From: Rozella allomycis CSF55
Lineage: Eukaryota
Direction of reading: 5' to 3'
NCBI GenBank assembly: GCA_000442015.1
Contig: KE561347.1
Coordinates: forward strand, 45,489-65,488
DNA length: 20,000 nt
The translations under genes and the position numbers were made by a program. How positions within the stretch are numbered: position 1 is the first letter of the stretch; each line of letters begins with the position of its first letter. Below are positions 928 to 20,000 of the stretch, in pieces. The notes beneath the pieces are model-generated. The model was not told the DNA's origin, did no database searches, and saw only the letters and a list, made by a program, of their open reading frames with translations.

Positions 928-3900
928 ATGGAAATGGAGTTTCCAGTGCACGGACTGATGCCCAAGCAAGTACAAAAAATCCAACGATAAAATAGGAAAC
1001 GGAAGCATCAAACTTTGTCAAAAAGCACGCTACGTGGGACGGCCGAGGTATTATTGTTGCGATTTTAGATACGGGTGTTGATCCTGGAGCAGCTGGCTTG
1101 CAAGTAAAAATGAAATATATTAATAAGTAGAAAACAAGTGATGGGAAGCGCAAGTTGCTTGATGTGATTGATTGTTGTGGGAGCGGAGATGTTGTTTTGA
1201 GTGAGCCATTGAAGGTGGACGGAGAGATGAAGGTTGAGGGGTTGGCTGGATATAGATTGAGGTTGAATAGACAGTGGAATATCAAGGATGGACTGGTGAG
1301 GGTAGGACTAAAGAGAGCGTTTGAATTGTATCCAAAGTCGTTGATTAAGAGATTGGTTGAAGATAGGAAAAAGAAAACTGAAGTTGATCATGTTAGTTAC
1401 TGTGGAAAAGTGCTGGAGGAGATTAGTGAAATGAAGAGAAAGAACTCTGATTTATCTAAAATGAATCAAGAGGAAATAATAAGATACAATGATCTGAATA
1501 CAAGATTGGATATATTGAAAGAGTTGAATAAAGAGGAAGATGTTGGCCCCTTGATTGATGTTGTTGTCTTTAATGATGGAAGTAGATGGAGGGCTGCAGT
1601 TGACATTAGCGGCACTGGAGATTTTACCAATTCCAAAGCGTATGCTGATTATTCTCTGGAACATGAATATGGGACATTTTCAAAGGATGATTGTTTGAAT
1701 TATTCCATCAAGTTTTATGATAATGGAAATGTGCTTTCAATCGTCACTAATGCGGGATCTCATGGTACCCATGTAGCAGGGATAGTTGGCGCGTATTTTG
1801 AAGATAACTTGGAGTTGAATGGAGTTGCTCCTGGATGTCAAATGATTAGCTTGAAAATTGGGGAAACCAGATTGGGGTCAATGGAAACTGGAACTGGATT
1901 TTGTAACAAATAATCATTTAATTAACTTAGCACGAGCGATTAAAGCCATTGCAGATTATGAATGTGATCTAGTGAACATTAGTTACGGAGAAGCACCGAA
2001 TGTGCCAAACAAAGGTCACATTGTAGAATTGTTAAAGGAATTAAGTTTAAAGAAGAATGTTGTTATTGTAAGCTCAGCTGGAAATGGAGGTCCTGCCTTG
2101 TCAACAGTTGGCGCGCCTGGTGGTACAAGTGACACAATAATTGGAGTTGGTGCATATGTGACGCCAGCTATGATGAAGGCAGAATACGCTCTAGTTGACA
2201 AAATAAATGAAACGTCTTATACTTGGTCATCAAGAGGACCAACTGCTGATGGAGATGTGGGAGTGAGTGTTTATGCACCTGGTGCTGCAATTACAAGTGT
2301 CCCTACATGGACACTACAACCAAACCAATTAATGAATGGAACTAGCATGTCTTCACCAAACGCTTGTGGTTGTCTTTCTTTAATAATATCAGGTTTAAAA
2401 CATGAAAAAATCAATTACACGCCAATGAGCATAAAGAGAGCTATTGAAAATACAAGCAAAGCCATTAATGATGAATTCAAAGTAGGATTAATTCAAGTTG
2501 AAAAATCATTTGAATATCTAGTTAAAACTCGTTCTTTTGTTGATTCTGATGTTGATTTTCAAATTGAAATTTCGGAAACAAAAGGCCGGGGTGTTTATAT
2601 AAGGAATTGTAGAGAAGCCAATAAAGTTAATCAATATACAGTGAATGTGAATCCAGTGTTTAGAAATGACGAAGATAATAATAAAAAATATCAATTGGAT
2701 GTTAAAATGGCGATTACAAGTAGTGAACCATGGGTTACAGTGCCTGAATATTTACAGATTAATAATGGAGGAAGAAATTTTAATATAATTGTTGATGCGA
2801 GAAATATTAAAGAAGGATTAAACTTTTGCCAAGTTGAAGGATTTGACGTTTCATCACCTTGGAGGGGTCCTCTATTTAAAGTCCTTATAACTGTTTGTAA
2901 ACCAATACAGCCAAAAGAATCAAATCAATTTTCATGTTTATTTAATAATCTAAAGTTAAAGAGTGGTGATATTCAACGTTATTTTATTGAATGTCCTTTA
3001 AATTGTTCATACGCAGGTAATAACGTTTGTTCTATTAGAAAGATATTGACTTGAAAGCTGAGAATGTTGAAAAAACAACGAAATTTGTTATTCATACATT
3101 GCAAATACTTCCAGAGACTAGATACTCGAATAGTGAGGATCAATTTTATGTTAATATTGGACCAAATGAAGTTTTTAAAAAAAGAATAATTGTTCAACCA
3201 GGTGTGGTCATGGAAGCGACTGTGGCGCCATTTTGGTCTAGCGGGCTAACTTCTGAAATTTCTTTCAATGTTTCATTTGGCGGGCTCTCTCCAAATTCTA
3301 AATTTATTTTATCTCAAGCAAATAATTTTGCTAAATTTGAAATGTCAAGTTTAAATAAATCAATAGCATCACCATCTGGTTCATTTGATTGCTATAACAA
3401 GACGTTAAAGCCAAGTGAATATTCAATAAATGTGTTGAGTGAAAGAGATAATCTCATTACAGGAAAGGCAATGAATGAATTAGTTTTAACGTATAAATTC
3501 AAAGTAGCTAATAGTTGTTCGATTACACCTTCAGTACCATTGTTTAATGATTATTTGTATGATTCTCCATTTAATAGCGTTGTTTCTATATTATTTGATA
3601 AAAATAAAAAATATTTAACGTTTGGTGACATTTATCCCAAAAAGACAAAAGTAGACCCTGGTCAGTACATATTTAAGCTTCAATTGAGGCACGAATCGTT
3701 TGAATTTCTTGAATCATTTTCTAATTTAGTTTTAAATGTTTCTTTTACTTTATCCAAAGAAGTTCCAATTGAATGCTACAAATCTCTGCCTGATTTGATT
3801 AACAAGACAAAGTTTGGTTCAGCAACTGTAAAGCCAGAGTATCCAATATCTTTATTCATTGGCACGCTAGTTGAAGATTTAAACGATGAAGTTCAACCAG

Positions 3901-4715
3901 GAGACTTTCTTTCTGGTTCAATTTACTTGGAAAAGAAGCAAGATGCCAGACCAAAACCATTTCCAGTGCAATTATACCTGTCGTGTCCTGTAAAGAAGGC
4001 TGATAAGAGTATTTCAATGAAGCCTTCGGATGACAAGAATGAATTTGATAAATTGAATGAAAGTCTTTTGGAATCCAAGATTTCTGCATTAAGCAAATTA
4101 AGTGAAGATCAATTTAAAGAAATTATTTCAAATCTAAGGGAAAAGGAATCAAGTTCTCCTGTATTTCTATTGGCTCTTTTGAAGAGATTGGATAATGCAG
4201 AAAATCGCAAGAATGAGCCGCTTAAAATTGTTAACGCTGCAGATAAAATTATTTCGTCTATCGATGCTTCTGCGTTAACTGAACATTTCGGAATTAAGAA
4301 GCAATCGTTTGATAAAGAATTTGTTAAAAGAAATGCAGAGTTTAATAAACTTAAAGACTATCTTGTTGAATCTCTTGTAAGAAAAGCAAGATCCCAAATT
4401 TCTATTTCAGTAGAAGAAGTTTCAAAAACTTTAAAAGAATTGGGCAAATGGGTTGATGTTGCTGAACATTCCGACGCTCTTGTTCCATTCGTTTGGGTCG
4501 AGAGACAAAATAAAAGGTATGGCAATGCTATTAAAGCTATCAATAAATGTATCAGTGCTGTTAAATCTAAAGAATCTTCTGATTTGATTCCTTTGGAAAA
4601 AGAACTTTATGAACTTCGTTTGGAAGTGTTGGAGCAACTTGGATGGAAGGCCTTGGCTGACAATGAACGTAGATGGAATGTTCTTAGATTTCCTAAAGAA
4701 TTTATGGGATTTTAA
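928..4715 (+). CDS. TPP2: Tripeptidyl-peptidase II (subtilase S8)
   Basis: Exons 928-969, 996-1103, 1131-1902, 1931-3016, 3043-4715. N-terminus [33 protein letters not shown]; catalytic motifs ILDTG, HGTHVAG and [13 protein letters not shown] motifs LGSMETGTG and YTWSSRGP. Confidence 0.97.
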
Positions 4716-4780: not shown

Positions 4781-5061
4781 AGGCGTCAGCGTAGCTATTT
4801 GAAGAATTAAGGTACTACATCTTTGTCAAATATCTAAGTTGATGCGAGAACTTTTCGGAACGCAAATAGGGGCTAAGGAATTCTTTCGAGTTTTAATAGC
4901 AAATAAAGATAAAGATTGATNAGGCGTCAGCGTAGCTATTTGAAAAAGTAAGGTACTACAGCATTTTCAAATATCAAAGTTGATGTGAGAACTTTTCGGA
5001 ACGCAAGTAGAGGCTAAGGAATTCTTTCGAGTTTTAATAGCAAATAAAGATAAAGATTGAT
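4781..5061. repeat. 140-bp diverged duplication across scaffold N at 4921
   Basis: 4781-4920 and 4922-5061 are colinear, with about 9 substitutions and no indels. Confidence 0.9.
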
Positions 5062-5674: not shown

Positions 5675-8600
5675 TCAAAATTCATACCATTTTTTATTTT
5701 CTTCCTTTTCTCTCAATTGTTTGGCCAAATCAAGAAATGATTTCGCATTTTCAGCCATATCCTCTGTCTTCTTGTCCAGATTTGACAATTTCTCGCCTCT
5801 TTCCAATGCCGCCTTTATTAATTGATAAAAATTTAAATACATTTCCAAGGTCGGTAAAAACAGAATTGGAAGCAGAAGATTCAATGTTTACTTTGGAAAT
5901 GGAAGAAGACCGTGAATTGTCTATTCGAGCTCCGGATACTTTAATTTTGAAAACTATGTTTTACATAATTCTTCTAAATCTTTCATTGATGTGCCTTTTC
6001 TTAACTGAATTTCTGGAATCTTTAAATCTTCATTGTAAAGCAACACTGAAGGCCTATTTCGCAAATTATTGGTTCATTACCCATTACGAGGATTGAAGGT
6101 TAATTCACAGACATTATTTTCGATTATAACATAATCAGAAGACAAGAGTTTAACATTTCCAGATGACTGAAAAGTAATCAGCTCACATTTGGGAAGGGAA
6201 TAAACAGAAAAAGCACTTGTTGAATTTGTAGCTAAAACTAATCCATGATCTGTAGAAATAATNTAAATTATTAATTAATTACCCATGACGAGGATTGAAT
6301 GCTAATTCACAGACATTATTTTCGATAATAACATAATCAGAAGACAAGAGTTTAACATTTCCAGATGATTCAAATGTAATCTGCTCACATTTGGGAAGGG
6401 AATAAACAGAAAATGCACTTGTTGAATTTGTAGCTAGAACTAATCCATGATCTGTAGAAACAATTTCAGCTTGAAGTAACATTTCTTTTTTAAATTTCCT
6501 GTGAATTAATTGCGAGATGCTTGGCGGCTCATGATTTATTAACTTATCGATTTCATAAACGTAGTAATCACTTTTAGTAGTGAGAATAAGAAATATCTTG
6601 TCAAGTTCTTTAATGGATTTAGATGAAACGCTCCTTTTTGGTAAACTTGGCATACTATTTTCATTGTCAGCATCATTGTTAGAGTCGTTATCATGGTCAA
6701 GAGAGTTATTTTGAAGTAATTCAATATCATTATTAATATTGTGTTTTACCATTTGCCCAATGCCTAGTGTCTAATTCTAGAGTCTTTCCAACTTGATTGC
6801 AAGTATGAAGCAATAATATTTCTTCCTTTAACGAAAATGAGTAAACTATTCAATAAAAAAATAAAATATACCTTGTATAAACACACCTTCTTTGAGAATG
6901 TAAAACAAAACTCTCCCAGTACTTGTTCCAATAATGAATACCATTTGAGATTCATATTCATAGCAAGCAGAACTACTCAAATGTTCATCAGGCATAAGAC
7001 CATTAGGTTCTGATAGATGAAGTAATAGGTTATTAGAGTAATCAAAAGCAACTAAACTGGCTTCTTTTGACTCCAACACCATACTATTATTTAGGGTATA
7101 ATAAAGTTACTAATTCCCATTTAATCTTAGACTCGCCCTATTTACCAATAAGTTTGAAATTTTAAACTTTAGCTGAAAGCCCGGAGATGTGCAATTTTCG
7201 AGATAGTCCAGAGTGACATTACTACAAACAGATAATGCAGTAACTTTATCTATTGAATCTCTATTAACAAAAGAAAACTCGTAAATATAAAAGAATTCTG
7301 CTGTTTGAACAATAATGATCCTCGGCTTCGGATAAAATTGGTGGTCCAATATTTTCTCATTAACATCCAATGAAAATAACTCCAGATAGGATATTTTGGG
7401 AGTGTAAACCTGTAATCGACTTTTATTATTGATAAAACAAAGATCTGCATCGATAAATGGTTTAAATGGCTCTGGATACATGCTAAACTTTGAGGTGGGG
7501 CTTTCAAAACAACTTATAATATCATCTATTAGGTTTTCATCTAAATTCTTATAAATTTTAACGTTTGAATCTGGCAGTATCGGATTTAGAGAATAGGGGA
7601 GCGGTATAAAGGGGAAGTGCTGATGGGAAACGTCTATAGCCTCAAGATTATTTTCTCCACAAACTGTTAGCATTTCAACATAATTATCTGAAGTAGAAAT
7701 CGTAATAATATTATAAACTTTAAAAGAAACGTCNAATTAGCATTTCGACATAGTTATCTGAATTAGAAATCGGAATAATATTATAAACTTTAAAAGAAAC
7801 GTCAATGTACTGCAATTGAGTAATATCCTTAAAGTTATCTTTTTGAAATTGCAATATTTGTATTCCTTTGTCAAAATCTTTTGAACACCCACCAGAAATT
7901 ATGATAATTGTAGTGTTCATAGTTGATTTGGCCCATTTCATATTTGAAAATTCAATTACAGTTTCTCCTTTGAACGCAGACATTCTTTCTTCAGCTGTAA
8001 TTTTTGCGTAAACTTTTAATGAAGAACTTTTGTAAATAATTATTTCTCCATCTTCACATCCCAGTGCAATATAATCCCCTGATGGATGCCAACATGCGAC
8101 TTGCGCCCTTTTATCCACGATTGTACTGCAATGAAGCTTACTTTTTCTGATATCCAAAATCCCGATAAAGCCATTGGCATGTACGAAAAGTAATAGTGAT
8201 GGATCAGAAGGGTTGAACATCTGAATTAAAATATCTGATTCATTGTAATATTGAAAAGAAGCACTTGACCAAATTCCATTTTGCACATTCAACAATCTAA
8301 TAGAATCTTTAAAGCTCACAAACAACCATTTTGATAAATTTGGTATCGCAGCTTCTAAAATATTCGATTGATTTGAAATGATATGCAGAATTCCTTTCTG
8401 CGCAATGCTCTTTTGATAATCAGATTTTACAATGGTCCTCGTTTTAATATTTTCATGATTTAAGTTCCATATATAAATAGTATTTTGATTATTTATCGCT
8501 GCGATTCTTCCATGCCCCTCCTCGAACACCAGTCTGACAATGGGATGAACTGATTCTTCATGCTCCAAAATACAGAATTCATTTCTCCCTACAAATATTT

Positions 8601-15158: not shown

Positions 15159-16570
15159 TATGTTAACTTGTTTGTATTTCATAATAAAAAAGAAAATTTT
15201 GATCTTCTAAGAGCATTTTTCCAATCCACATACATATTTCAAATTTAGAGCTATGATAGGGCTAACGTTGGAATTGAGTATACCAGAGTATGCTATAAGC
15301 AATTAAATATTAAATTCGTAGTTCCAAGCTACTATTGTAGCGGTTTTCAAAACTGTGCATGTTGGAAGTCCGTCAGGCGTCAAGAAATTTTCCAAATACG
15401 TAAATGTAAAAAATCTTCCCTTGCTTTTGTAGCTTTTTAGAAAAGCCTTATTTACTTTAGCTAGAAGATTTTTACTATATAAAACTGTTTCTTTTGATTG
15501 ACTTTACGACTAAAGCTAAGCGTAAAGACAGATACGAGAAATACATAACTATTTCACTATTTTTTGTGATTTAATTAATCTTTGTTTAAGACAAGACATA
15601 GTTAACTGGTAGTCCACTTTGCTAACCTGACATTATCCCCTTCTCTGTCTCATTGAGATTTATTTTAATGTAATACTTTATACTAGCCGGTAAGTTGAAT
15701 CTCAATAGGTGAAAGAATCCATTGGTTCACGAAACCATTATTTGGATAATTCAATCTTACCTGTGGCAAAGTTGTGCTAGTTTCTCAGAGTTAGTTGCAA
15801 CATTTTATAGTGGCTTCGTCACTACATAGCAACTTTGATGGGATAATGGAAATTCATCATCATTATAAGTCGTTTGAAAGGATTCCCATTGATTAATTAA
15901 ATATCCATACTTCCATAGAGGAATTAATTCTTATCACCATAGACATATGTTGAAAAGGAGGTGACGAGCAATAGAACTAATTAAGCAGAGTTATTATAAT
16001 CGATGATTCGATGGTTCTTCAATTTTACGATTTCAAACGCCGTTCATTATTTTTATATCATTTTTAGTATTCTCTTTATAGTTACATCATTTTGTCATTT
16101 GTGTCTGTTGTAACCATTTTTACTCTAACATATCCAACACAATTGGTTTGTAAGGTGGAAAATCCATTTGAATGTCTCTAACTTTTGCATGGTCTTGCTT
16201 AAACCATGTTCTTATTTTTGCTTCGATTGACGATTCCTTTGATTCGTGATTCTCTTCTCTAATGAAAAATGAAACTAGCAAATTTTGAGATTGAGGCATT
16301 ATATTCTTATTCTCAGTTGGTGGAGTGATTTGTCTGGTTAATTTCGAGTGCTACTGTGCTAGTTTAATAAACGGGATAAGAAAATACAATTATAGATTTG
16401 AATATTGTGAATAATTAAAGCAACGCTTATCATTCCATATGTGATGTTTGGATAAAAATTCAGTATAACAGCGCTCGTCCCTCAAACCTGATACTAGTGA
16501 GACGCAAAGGCGAGAATGGCAGTGGAGTAGAGAGTACCCGTTAAATATGTCTGATTCATAAATAAAGATT

Positions 16571-16617
16571 TATCGGACGGGGAGTTTACGACCCGGACTT
16601 CAGAAACGATTATTGGC
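16571..16617. repeat. 47-bp exact direct repeat, copy 1 (truncated by N at 16618)
   Basis: TATCGGACGGGGAGTTTACGACCCGGACTTCAGAAACGATTATTGGC is identical to 19236-19282; the upstream flanks differ. Confidence 0.95.
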
Positions 16618-16618
16618 N

Positions 16619-17201
16619 TAGAAGTATTGAGTGGATTAGAACAACACTTCACATTGGCTCTGTTGAAAGTGCATTTGACAAGTGGATCAAGTTGACCAAT
16701 GCTGCATATGAAGTGACCAGTGATGCACGGCCAGTGCTCTTACTTGATGAAATTGGGGTGTTTATGGGCATGACTAATAGACCGTCTTCGACAAAGAATG
16801 ATGCGAATGGTAATTTCCTTATTCATACCTATCTTTCTGATGCTATTACTACTTTATTGAACCGATGTTATGTTATTGTTTCTGGGACTAGAGATGTCAA
16901 TCTGTCTGCTTTGAGTGACTATTCCAACTTTGTTACCAACAATTTCTCACTGACACCGTTTTCAATGGAGGATGCCTATCAATATGGAGTGAATTATTTG
17001 ACCTTGAAGGATTGCAGGGATCAATGGCCAAATACCTTTGATGATTTCATGAACGATTCGTCCCTTCTTAGCCTCTTCTACCAGACTTTGCAAGTGCCAA
17101 GATTAGTCGTCTTTGCTGTTGAAGCGTTTTTTGAAAGTTCATCGGGCAATCCTGCTTGTTCGTCATTTGAAGCAAAAACCCTCAAATGGTACAAAGATGC
17201 C
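16619..17201 (+). CDS. Fragment A of CR/Crinkler-type NTPase-nuclease gene (Walker B and helical region)
   Basis: Open frame from N to N. Contains PVLLLDEIG (Walker B), VIVSGT strand, LTPFS and QVPRLV (GxPR-like). Confidence 0.75.
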
Positions 17202-17202
17202 N

Positions 17203-17851
17203 ACATCCTCCATTGAAAACGGTGTCAGTGAGATATTGGTGGTAACAAACTTGGAATAGTCAGCAGTCAAAGCAAACAGATTGCCATCTCTAGTCCCGGA
17301 AGCAATAACATAACATCGGTTCAATAGAGTAGTAATAGCATCAGAAAGATAGGTATGCATAAGGAAATTAACATTCGCTTTCTTTGTCGAAGACGGTCTA
17401 TGTGTCATGCCCATAAACACCCCAATTTCATCAAGTAAGAGCACTGGCCGTGCATCACTGGTCACTTCATATGCAGCATTGGTCAACTTGATCCACTTGT
17501 CAAATGCACTTTCAACAGAGCCAATGTGAAGTGTTGTTCTTATCCACTCAATACTCCTGAATTCAACTCCATCAACTACGCATCCCTCAAAAATTTTCCA
17601 CAAATGATCAAGAATAATCTCCATCCAAAGATCTTCGGCAAAATTCTCATGCTCTAAAACTTTCTTATATTTGCTCAAATCAACAACTGCCAGCCGCCCA
17701 ATAGCACGAGCCGCACTCAGCTGAGAATTGTCGATCTCCACACCAAATCCTTCAGGATCGACAAGTGCTTTTAAAACAGTCGTCTTCCCTAGCCCACGAG
17801 TAGCACATAGAACTCCAACTGATGTCTATATCGGTGTATCCACCAAAACTT
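17203..17851 (-). pseudogene. Fragment B: inverted second copy of the NTPase domain, with Walker A and Walker B
   Basis: Extending the 17163..17741 frame upstream gives VLVDTPI*TSVGVLCATRGLGKTTVLKALV. Walker A is at about 17778-17804 and an in-frame TAG at 17826-17828. About 355 bp is a diverged reverse complement of fragment A. Confidence 0.7.
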
Positions 17852-17852
17852 N

Positions 17853-17942
17853 CTTCTTTCGAAATAGCTTCAATCTGTGTTTCTCGTCCAAGAAGAGGAA
17901 GTGTGGGTCCATTCTTTTGAAGGCATTTAATTAGAACATCTC
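17853..17942 (-). CDS. Fragment C: segment upstream of Walker A
   Basis: DVLIKCLQKNGPTLPLLGRETQIEAISKE. The hhGRE motif typically precedes Walker A in STAND/AAA-like NTPases. Confidence 0.6.
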
Positions 17943-17943
17943 N

Positions 17944-18430
17944 TGAAGCGTTTAGTGCCAGTTCATTGGTCATTGCTGCTTGTTCGTCATTTGAAGCAAA
18001 AACCCTCAAATGGTACAAAGATGCCTCGCAGTCGTTTGGGTCCTACTCTGATCATGATCTTGTTCACATCTTGTTTGCTTGTGCATCTGGCTATCGCTTG
18101 TCACAGAATGATTGCATTCCAGGTACAGACCTCTTAGTTCGTGATTTTATTGATGGAGGAATGATTTTTCATTATGTTGATGGTCGATTTACGACCCTGC
18201 TGTGGATCTTTGCCAAAGAGAGGTTAGTTGATCTTGATACTTATGCCAAAACTTTGATTCCAAATAACGATCTCTCCAAGTGCTTTTTTTCATTCGATTC
18301 TTGGCTCAACAAGTCACTGAATCTACATTCAATTGGTGTGGAATTCGAGGCCATCTTTGCTCATTCTCTTTGCATCAAGTATTACCTCCATTCTCTTGTG
18401 AACGGTGAAGGCCCTTTTAGCTTTTCTGCT
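17944..18430 (+). CDS. Fragment D: linker and start of nuclease domain
   Basis: Overlaps the end of fragment A (ACSSFEAKTLKWYKDA). Open frame, with IGVEFEAIFAHSL as the first REase helix. Confidence 0.7.
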
Positions 18431-18431
18431 N

Positions 18432-19219
18432 TGCTTGTCACAGAATGATTGCATTCCAGGTACAGGCCTCGTAGGTGGTGATCGTATTGATGGAGGAATG
18501 ATTTTTCATTATGTGGATGGTCGATTTACGACCCTGCTGTGGATCGTTGCCAACGAGAGGTTAGTTGATCTTGATACTTATGCCACAACTTTGATGCCAA
18601 ATATCGATCACTCCAAGTGCTTTTTTTCATTCGATTATTGGCTCAACAAGTCACTGAATCTACTTCAATTGGCGGGGAATTCGAGGCCATCTTTGCTCAT
18701 TCTTTTTGCATCAAGTATTACCTCCATTCTCCTGTGAACGGTGAAGGCCCTTCTAGCTTTTCTGCTGTGTACGATCTTGATATCCACAGTAAATCTTACC
18801 CAGCCGCTTCGACTTGGAATATTGATTTGCGAGGTGGTTATGTGGAAACAGAAGATGTAACTGACGAGGACAATTTAGAGCGTTGCTTTTACCACAACAC
18901 TTTCACCAACAATGCCGCTGCAGACTCTGTTGCATTCAAGGATCCATCTCCCCATCTTAATATTCAAGACAAATACTCAATGGATTGTGAAATTGAGACT
19001 GACAAGATAGCCAGGCAGTTGGAGCATTGTGAAAATTTATTGTGGGTCCCACTTGGTCTTGTGGAAGATGACTATGTTCCGCCAAACTACAGGACTGGAG
19101 CAGTAAGGAACGCTTGGCTTGAAAAAAGGTTGGCATTTATCGATGGAAGTGGCTGTTGCAATCCAATGCTCATGGATTTATCGATTCTGTTGAAGTTGCA
19201 TTTAGAAACTACTAAATAA
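18432..19219 (+). pseudogene. Fragment E: duplicate of D with a 1-nt frameshift, continuing into a PD-(D/E)xK-like nuclease C-terminus
   Basis: CTACTTCAATT here vs CTACATTCAATT in D (deletion near 18664). Nuclease motif G.EFE...FYHN..NNAAADSVAF...LNIQDKYS; stop at 19219. Confidence 0.7.
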
Positions 19220-19235
19220 AACACATTGTTCAATC

Positions 19236-19282
19236 TATCGGACGGGGAGTTTACGACCCGGACTTCAGAAACGATTATTGGC
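19236..19282. repeat. 47-bp exact direct repeat, copy 2
   Basis: Identical to 16571-16617; starts 16 bp after the nuclease stop codon. Confidence 0.95.
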
Positions 19283-19318: not shown

Positions 19319-20000
19319 TTCACTTTAAGGGATTTAAATTTTACACCGTGAACCAGGGTGGTTGTCGAGTGGTGCGTGTGTGTGTGTGTATGTGTGTCAG
19401 TAACCTTTTTTGCTTCCGATTCTCTCCAAATTTGGTCTCTGAACTCAACACACCCAGTATACGACGTAATATCAATTTTCAGTCCGTATAGTAAAGGTAG
19501 TTGTTGAGATATAGGTGGCGGAAGTTTTTTAAGGTGCATGTTGGATTGTTCATTAATATGCCACATTTGTGACGAATTATAAATAGATTAAATAAAAACA
19601 ATAAATTGTTATTTTATTTTTTTTTATTAGCGTTTTGGAGCCATAAGAGTCGCTTGTTACACCTACTTTTGAGTTCCATAGTGTAGCGAATCTTAAAAAG
19701 TATAGAATCGATTATAAGTTTATATTAATTAAAAGATAATATTGTAGACATTTATTTATTACAACATGATAATTGAGATTCAGGATTCGTANTTCACTTT
19801 AAGGGATTTAAATTTTACACCGTGAACCAGGGTGGTTGTCGAGTGGTGCGTGTGTGTGTGTGTATGTGTGTCAGTAACCTTTTTTGCTTCCGATTCTCTC
19901 CAAATTTGGTCTCTGAACTCAACACACCCAGTATACGACGTAATATCAATTTTCAGTCCGTATAGTAAAGGTAGTTGTTGAGATATAGGTGGCGGAAGTT
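19319..20000. repeat. 208-bp or longer exact duplication (19319-19526 = 19793-20000) containing a GT microsatellite
   Basis: The second copy begins immediately after the N at 19792. The (GT)n tract is at about 19376-19397 and 19850-19871. Confidence 0.92.

Follow-up and report, generated by a model that had tools for sequence, protein, structure and literature searches.

A Crinkler/CR-type NTPase and nuclease-like gene of Rozella allomycis, probably mis-strung in the assembly as five contigs joined by single Ns

How should a gene be read that stands in a genome assembly as five pieces, in an unexpected order, partly on the opposite strand and each bounded by a single N? The question is raised by a 20,000-nucleotide stretch of Rozella allomycis CSF55 (contig KE561347.1, positions 45,489 to 65,488 of the forward strand; hereafter the window), in which a first-pass annotation made from the letters alone had described a scrambled, multi-copy gene for a Crinkler/CR-type toxin effector combining a nucleoside triphosphatase (NTPase) with a restriction endonuclease (REase) fold. 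We consider it probable that the window holds one R. allomycis locus with a headerless member of this family, about 618 amino acids (aa) long, that was left as five contigs and mis-strung by single Ns.

Protein search with the largest minus-strand piece (piece B below) as query retrieved two full-length homologues, P0001 (618 aa, 79% identical to piece B) and P0002 (620 aa, 71% identical), as well as a 370-aa fragment, P0003. When P0001 was compared with the window by tblastn, the five N-bounded pieces (16620-19219) were found to cover residues 15-618 of this protein collinearly, with 72-88% identity in the matching segments. The pieces are as follows:

Piece A, 16620..17201, plus strand: residues 143-333, with LLLDE at 16737-16751 and QVPR; open frame (tblastn with P0001, 78% identity, E 1.5e-92).
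Piece B, 17203..17851, minus strand: residues 44-258, with Walker A ATRGLGKT at 17781-17804 and LLLDE; in-frame TAG at 17826-17828 (tblastn with P0001).
Piece C, 17854..17940, minus strand: residues 15-43, with the LLGRE motif (tblastn with P0001, 78% identity, E 2e-8).
Piece D, 17945..18430, plus strand: residues 305-468, comprising the helical/winged-helix region plus the beginning of the nuclease-like domain (GVEFE); open frame (tblastn, 88% identity, E 7e-90).
Piece E, 18432..19219, plus strand: residues 358-618, with G.EFE, N.A.D and IQDK; stop codon TAA at 19217-19219 (tblastn matches in two frames).

A collinear gene is obtained if pieces B and C are flipped together and set before A. 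On either side of the N at 17852, pieces C and B follow one another collinearly, yet in different frames. At the nucleotide level the pieces overlap with 94-94.6% identity for A and B (inverted), 90% for A and D and 93-94% for D and E. The first-pass annotation had ordered them as C, B/A, D/E into an intronless polypeptide of about 600 aa, and the tiling on P0001 agrees with both order and length; the motifs it had read (LLGRE, ATRGLGKT, LLLDE, QVPR, G.EFE, N.A.D and IQDK) are all present in the pieces, each of which aligned to P0001 in tblastn without intron-sized gaps.

Looking at the Ns themselves, we found nine in the window, all single, at positions 4921, 6263, 7734, 16618, 17202, 17852, 17943, 18431 and 19792, and we compared the sequence on both sides of each for repeated ends. 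At six of the nine joins the end of the left segment was repeated to the right of the N with 93-100% identity:

N 4921: 4781-4920 repeated at 4922-5061, 93.6% identity.
N 6263: 6063-6262 repeated at 6265-6464, 93% identity.
N 7734: 7667-7733 repeated at 7737-7803, 94% identity.
N 17202 (pieces A and B): inverted overlap, 94.6% identity.
N 18431 (pieces D and E): 18096-18430 repeated at 18433-18766, 94% identity.
N 19792: 19319-19526 repeated at 19793-20000, 208 bp, 100% identity.

Three of these six joins (4921, 6263 and 7734) lie in housekeeping genes, and the mismatches within the overlaps are scattered substitutions. A single N here is a place where two overlapping contig ends were too different to merge. 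Since the same overlap pattern is seen at Ns in housekeeping genes, the overlaps within the Crinkler-type gene are best taken as an assembly artefact, and its pieces, judged from their sequence, most likely represent one locus that was mis-ordered by scaffolding and is present in two sequence variants. Contigs of 90-790 bp are readily misplaced by scaffolders. The earlier description of the gene as scrambled and multi-copy, understood as a property of the genome, is therefore not sustained: unmerged overlaps of 93-94% identity are found at the housekeeping Ns too. The housekeeping duplicates (67-200 bp, 93-94% identity) include amino-acid changes in coding sequence, and they suggest two diverged haplotypes, or error-rich contig ends, laid in tandem. 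The repeat at N 19792 is probably an unmerged contig overlap as well; the repeated 208-bp stretch contains a (GT)n run near 19375-19395.

Two lesions interrupt the reading frame. In piece B, the in-frame TAG replaces a Lys codon that is kept in P0001, P0002, P0003 and P0049, a further paralogue. This TAG stands three codons upstream of Walker A, which is why the scan for open reading frames (ORFs) had missed ATRGLGKT, an omission already pointed out in the first-pass annotation. Reassignment of TAG to an amino acid was rejected: genes next to this one translate well with the standard code, and the codon stands at a single conserved AAG-type Lys position, which speaks against it too. In piece E, a deletion of 1 nucleotide at about 18663/18664 relative to piece D shifts the frame. 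Over 227 codons the two sequence variants differ by 7 synonymous versus 29 non-synonymous changes; the substitutions between overlapping pieces show no purifying selection, with small counts. The two variants may be alleles, recent paralogues or error-rich contig ends. As had been remarked from the letters, the pieces are GC-richer than the rest, with a GC content of 0.40-0.43 and 0.36-0.42 at third codon positions, against 0.32-0.39 and 0.21-0.375 in eleven other long ORFs of the window. A metagenome scan gave one short related locus, L001, with 66% protein identity. At positions 2-679 it carries a 3' portion of such a gene, 76% identical in nucleotides to window positions 18504-19188, and its translation matches the short protein P0004. 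The frame switches partway, so L001 is another broken or error-laden copy.

What kind of protein is encoded? We built an AlphaFold model of P0001 with 42 aligned relatives, which reached a predicted local distance difference test score (pLDDT) of 88.6 and a predicted template-modelling score (pTM) of 0.85. Foldseek comparison of this model with the PDB gave 255 matches at E <= 0.001, led by Apaf-1 (E 5.7e-8), the archaeal Walker-type ATPase 2qen (E 2.7e-7; TM-target 0.60 over 411 columns), 2fna, CED-4, ORC/Cdc6 and NLRs. According to the model, the N-terminal part of about 410 aa is an AAA+/STAND-like ATPase with helical and winged-helix parts. The Walker A signature GxxxxGK[ST] is found as GLGKT in piece B (17781-17804, minus strand) and the Walker B signature hhhhD[DE] as LLLDE in both A and B; the long homologues keep these two motifs as well as the arginine of Q-[VI]-P-R. 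Pfam did not assign the ATPase: piece B scored 18.6 bits for AAA (PF00004), against a cut-off of 21.2, P0001-P0003 stayed below the cut-offs for AAA, AAA_16 and AAA_22, and pieces A, C, D and E had no Pfam match.

With the archaeal ATPases PAB2304 (2qen) and SSO1545 (2fna), Apaf-1, CED-4 and ORC/Cdc6, the family shares the fold of its first 410 or so residues (Foldseek E 5.7e-8 to 5e-6), and an LxGRE-type motif, Walker A and Walker B are arranged alike in it and in archaeal, STAND and AAA+ ATPases. In contrast, none of these proteins has the C-terminal nuclease-like domain of the window family, whose sequence matches to Pfam AAA, AAA_16 and ATPase_2 are all sub-threshold. At Walker B the Rozella group has LLDE, and many distant members (P0008, P0011, P0021, P0027, P0033, P0044 and P0046) have LLDN. 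With Walker A and the Q-[VI]-P-R arginine retained and the usual catalytic Glu missing, such members may be able to bind nucleotide but not to hydrolyse it.

The C-terminal part was analysed with the window's own sequence:

Nuclease-like domain, 18665-19216, plus strand: 184 aa within piece E, with the Glu at 18683-18685, the Asp at 18923-18925 and Q-D-K at 18965-18973.

Its AlphaFold model reached pLDDT 94.2 and pTM 0.90, and the elements follow each other as a helix bearing the Glu, strands, a strand bearing the Asp, a strand bearing QxK, a helix bearing a Gln and a final strand. The order alpha-beta-beta-beta-alpha-beta is the layout of PD-(D/E)xK nucleases. Both the motif and the order of elements in the model correspond to the catalytic signature (E)...D...(D/E/Q)xK on a restriction-endonuclease-type core. 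Among the 42 aligned sequences, N, K and G positions are invariant, the K of QxK being present in all 42, and Y, G, A, D, Q, L, W, F, G and K positions, including the putative catalytic D, are at least 90% conserved; along the domain, the conserved positions are a Gly and the Glu in the first helix, then N, A..D, QxK, Q, LLW and F..G.GC. The top Foldseek rows in the PDB were MspJI, XPF, McrC, DdmD, EcoT38I, Card1, TnsA, LmuA, Ecl18kI, EcoRII, AvaII and SfsA (best E 0.18), and those in BFVD were "Restriction endonuclease" (probability up to 0.90), RecB-family, ERCC4 and Holliday-junction resolvase entries (best E 0.04). The model thus makes a restriction-endonuclease fold likely for this domain. 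With the PD-(D/E)xK nucleases (MspJI, XPF/ERCC4, McrC and Mrr-type) it has in common the helix with Glu, the strands with Asp and QxK and the helix with Gln; it differs by a Gln in place of the usual Asp or Glu of the (D/E)xK triplet.

An exhaustive search with piece E brought up 45 representative clusters with E <= 0.001, of which 11 reached E <= 1e-10. Nearly always the domain is C-terminal, in proteins of 75-1672 aa, and 14 long members have both the NTPase and the C-terminal domain. Named members come from Arcella intermedia, Amoeboaphelidium occidentale and Nowakowskiella sp. (Amoebozoa, aphelids and chytrids); a look-alike search pointed to Mucoromycota clusters (score 0.95), an unconfirmed lead only.

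The link of this architecture to the Crinkler (CRN)/CR effectors is made by the paralogue P0003. Its residues 1-112 match the Pfam Crinkler header PF20147 (E 7.6e-19) and are followed by HVLMELP and then by the module "FDKSEKR...LLGRE...ATRGMGKT", HVLMELP lying about 30 residues before the NTPase module. HVLMELP resembles the HVLVxxP-type motif that joins a CRN header to its C-terminal module; in the window gene, the corresponding part lies outside what is assembled. P0003 is 47% identical to piece B in tblastn and 53% in the protein search. Another protein, P0048 (394 aa), spans residues 242-602 of P0001 with 59% identity, and P0003 and P0048 are each reported on a contig of 3187. Given this same contig size and the coverage of P0048, the two are probably a single header-NTPase-nuclease gene split in annotation.

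Not all members carry such a header. P0001 and P0002 have none, their Met lying about 30 residues before LLGRE, and P0049 likewise begins immediately before the NTPase. As for the window, the first-pass annotation had seen no N-terminal header in it, and our searches agree: tblastn with the P0003 header gave no match at E <= 1e-3 (best E 0.13, at chance level), and residues 1-14, with all that lies upstream of them, are missing from the assembled gene. The assembled 5' end breaks off at the N at 17943, and this negative result for the window does not reach the true start of the gene. In six long homologues (P0008, P0033, P0044, P0047, P0059 and P0062) the NTPase is preceded by 60-120 extra N-terminal residues, which had no match to Pfam Crinkler or to the P0003 header and may represent uncatalogued headers of other kinds.

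According to a review, NTPase+REase pairs make up slightly over a quarter of CR C-termini and are a leading module, and the majority architecture of the Phytophthora CR proteins is NTPase+helix-turn-helix (HTH)+REase; the REase is thought to carry toxicity and the NTPase to regulate it (PMC5289972). The same source ties NTPase+REase pairs to transposable elements in prokaryotes, relates that a transposon ancestry has been proposed for them and reports CR proteins in non-pathogens as well. For Rhizophagus, CRNs with REase5/6/8 and NTPase4 domains are described, and most of those of R. irregularis are without a signal peptide and may act inside the fungus (PMC6131194). Models and fold searches place the window family in the NTPase+HTH+REase type of PMC5289972. 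It shares with that type the order of domains, namely a P-loop NTPase, a helical/winged-helix part and an REase-like C-terminus; one paralogue (P0003) has the Pfam Crinkler header and an HVLxxxP-type junction, and crinklers are reported in the same parasite lineage (PMC6299283). On the other side, the window copy, P0001 and P0002 are headerless, the C-terminal domain has no Pfam family, and the window copy is fragmented, with a stop codon and a frameshift. The identification as a Crinkler/CR-type NTPase+REase gene therefore stands in part. The headed paralogue, the ATPase fold and the E...D...QxK signature bear it out, and the REase fold is suggested. The window gene is a fragmentary addition to an already known type of Crinkler effector module.

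The surroundings agree with the named organism. One neighbouring gene is the following:

Tripeptidyl-peptidase II gene, 1131-4715, plus strand: three long open frames.

Over 1858-3054 it shares 99% identity with a named protein of Rozella allomycis CSF55, and chytrids and Mortierellomycotina follow as the next best relatives at about 50%. The paralogue P0049, likewise a named Rozella allomycis protein, shares 51% identity with P0001. A little to the left of the gene pieces, at 16120-16350 on the minus strand, there is an open frame of 76 aa. Besides these genes, a short repeat flanks the block of pieces:

50-bp repeat, left copy, 16568..16617, plus strand: ends exactly at the N at 16618 (blastn, 98% over 50 bp).
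50-bp repeat, right copy, 19233..19282, plus strand: begins 14 bp after the stop codon and runs into unique downstream sequence.

The two copies are identical at 49 of 50 positions, and a 37-nucleotide core occurs twice in the window against 0 expected. The edges of the homology are sharp, with no leftward extension. Neither an Rfam match nor a tRNA nor an unusual fold (z = -0.58) was detected for the repeat, which has no further copy in the window and is missing from L001. It may be another of the unmerged overlaps, coming for instance from an allele without the gene.

Several of our results pull away from the explanation that we favour. The A/B overlap is inverted, and the other five overlapping N joins are direct. 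The mostly non-synonymous differences, together with the stop codon and the frameshift, fit decay as well as they fit a working gene. For the C-terminal domain, none of the 500 structural rows in either the PDB or BFVD reached E <= 0.001, its profile had no match among PDB sequences at E <= 10 (the search with the full alignment gave chance-level rows only, the best being a superantigen at E 0.0072), and a scan of 42 members assigned it to no Pfam family, with faint matches limited to RRG7 (2 members) and HSDR_N_2 (1 member), each at E 0.13. PD-(D/E)xK nucleases are accordingly without a detectable sequence relationship or a statistically significant structural match to the domain, and for want of such a match we grade its fold as likely and not as demonstrated. 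Finally, the Pfam Crinkler header was found in one of about 50 homologues scanned (P0003 only, at E <= 0.01 or looser). The points on gene order and decay would suit a locus that is truly scrambled, in which inversion and recombination have made a dead mosaic pseudogene out of the debris of two or more paralogous copies. Such a locus would also explain why overlapping pieces differ by 6-10%, why A and B repeat each other in inverted orientation across a spacer of 229 bp, why piece B has a stop codon and piece E a frameshift, and why substitutions between copies look unconstrained; the related metagenome locus L001 is frameshifted too. Yet all breakpoints coincide with an N, the same overlap pattern at 93-94% identity is present in housekeeping genes of the window, the pieces (90-790 bp) belong to the size class that scaffolders commonly misplace, and two separate rearrangements would be required from a collinear gene. 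We therefore regard a genuine mosaic as improbable.

A different doubt concerns what the protein does and where. It might be an intracellular STAND-like protein of the parasite itself, serving immunity, self/non-self recognition or a selfish element, with an NLR-like ATPase that activates the nuclease domain, and not an exported effector. This is an unlikely explanation, if one to be taken seriously: P0001, P0002 and P0049 start directly before the NTPase, the best structural matches are Apaf-1, CED-4 and NLRs, and the domain family occurs in free-living eukaryotes (an Arcella intermedia transcriptome and Nowakowskiella). Against it, R. allomycis is an obligate intracellular parasite, the close paralogue P0003 has a Crinkler header and the HVLMELP junction just before the module, and the family has no NLR-type C-terminal sensor repeats. 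CR proteins in non-pathogens (PMC5289972) and the CRNs of R. irregularis, mostly without a signal peptide and perhaps acting in the fungus itself (PMC6131194), again speak for an intracellular role. The flanks, for their part, could be those of a hemizygous or recently inserted mobile cassette, namely a GC-richer headerless NTPase-nuclease gene within direct repeats of 47-50 bp. The recurrence of 16568-16617 at 19233-19282 with sharp homology edges, the higher GC content of the block relative to its neighbours and the transposon ancestry proposed for NTPase+REase pairs (PMC5289972) are all in keeping with this. However, the left copy stops right at an N, which is what an unmerged contig overlap would look like, the window and L001 showed no transposase, terminal inverted repeat or additional copy of the repeat, and the 5' end of the gene, which would fix the left boundary, is absent from the window. 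A mobile cassette is accordingly very unlikely, and we would give no greater weight to the repeats being real direct repeats around an inserted block. Slighter still is the chance of a wider version, in which the GC-richer block of about 2.6 kb would be a CR-type module that still behaves as a mobile or selfish element, hemizygous or recently inserted within its 47-50-bp direct repeats, and would act as a reservoir for recombination onto Crinkler headers in the manner of polymorphic-toxin cassettes. If the flank repeats were of this kind, they would bear on the proposed transposon ancestry of the CR effectors.

Returning to a single mis-strung locus, the assembler would have left it as five small contigs, which would have been joined by single Ns in the wrong order and orientation. 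The difference of 6-10% between overlapping contig ends would then reflect either two alleles or a very recent pair of copies, and the nonsense codon in piece B and the frameshift in piece E would disable at least one of the two sequence variants. In an intact protein, the N-terminal AAA+/STAND-like ATPase (GLGKT, LLLDE and the arginine of Q-V/I-P-R) would be a nucleotide-dependent switch or oligomerisation module, the helical/winged-helix part would bind DNA, and the C-terminal PD-(D/E)xK-type domain (E...D...QxK) would cut it. When preceded by a ubiquitin-like Crinkler header, as in paralogues, the module would be delivered into the host cell; when headerless, it may work within the parasite or be kept as a spare cassette. 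The data establish the family of the gene, its architecture, the ATPase fold, the conservation of the motifs and the assembly signature; for this module we infer nuclease activity, control by ATP, delivery and toxicity.

For this assembly, single-N joins mark diverged, unmerged overlaps, and duplications or scrambling beside such Ns are not to be read as biology; gene models that span the housekeeping Ns will contain false duplications. For the Rozella lineage, the locus adds a Crinkler-type family with an NTPase, a winged helix and a nuclease-like domain, and the C-terminal domain, a family without a Pfam model, could be curated as a new family.

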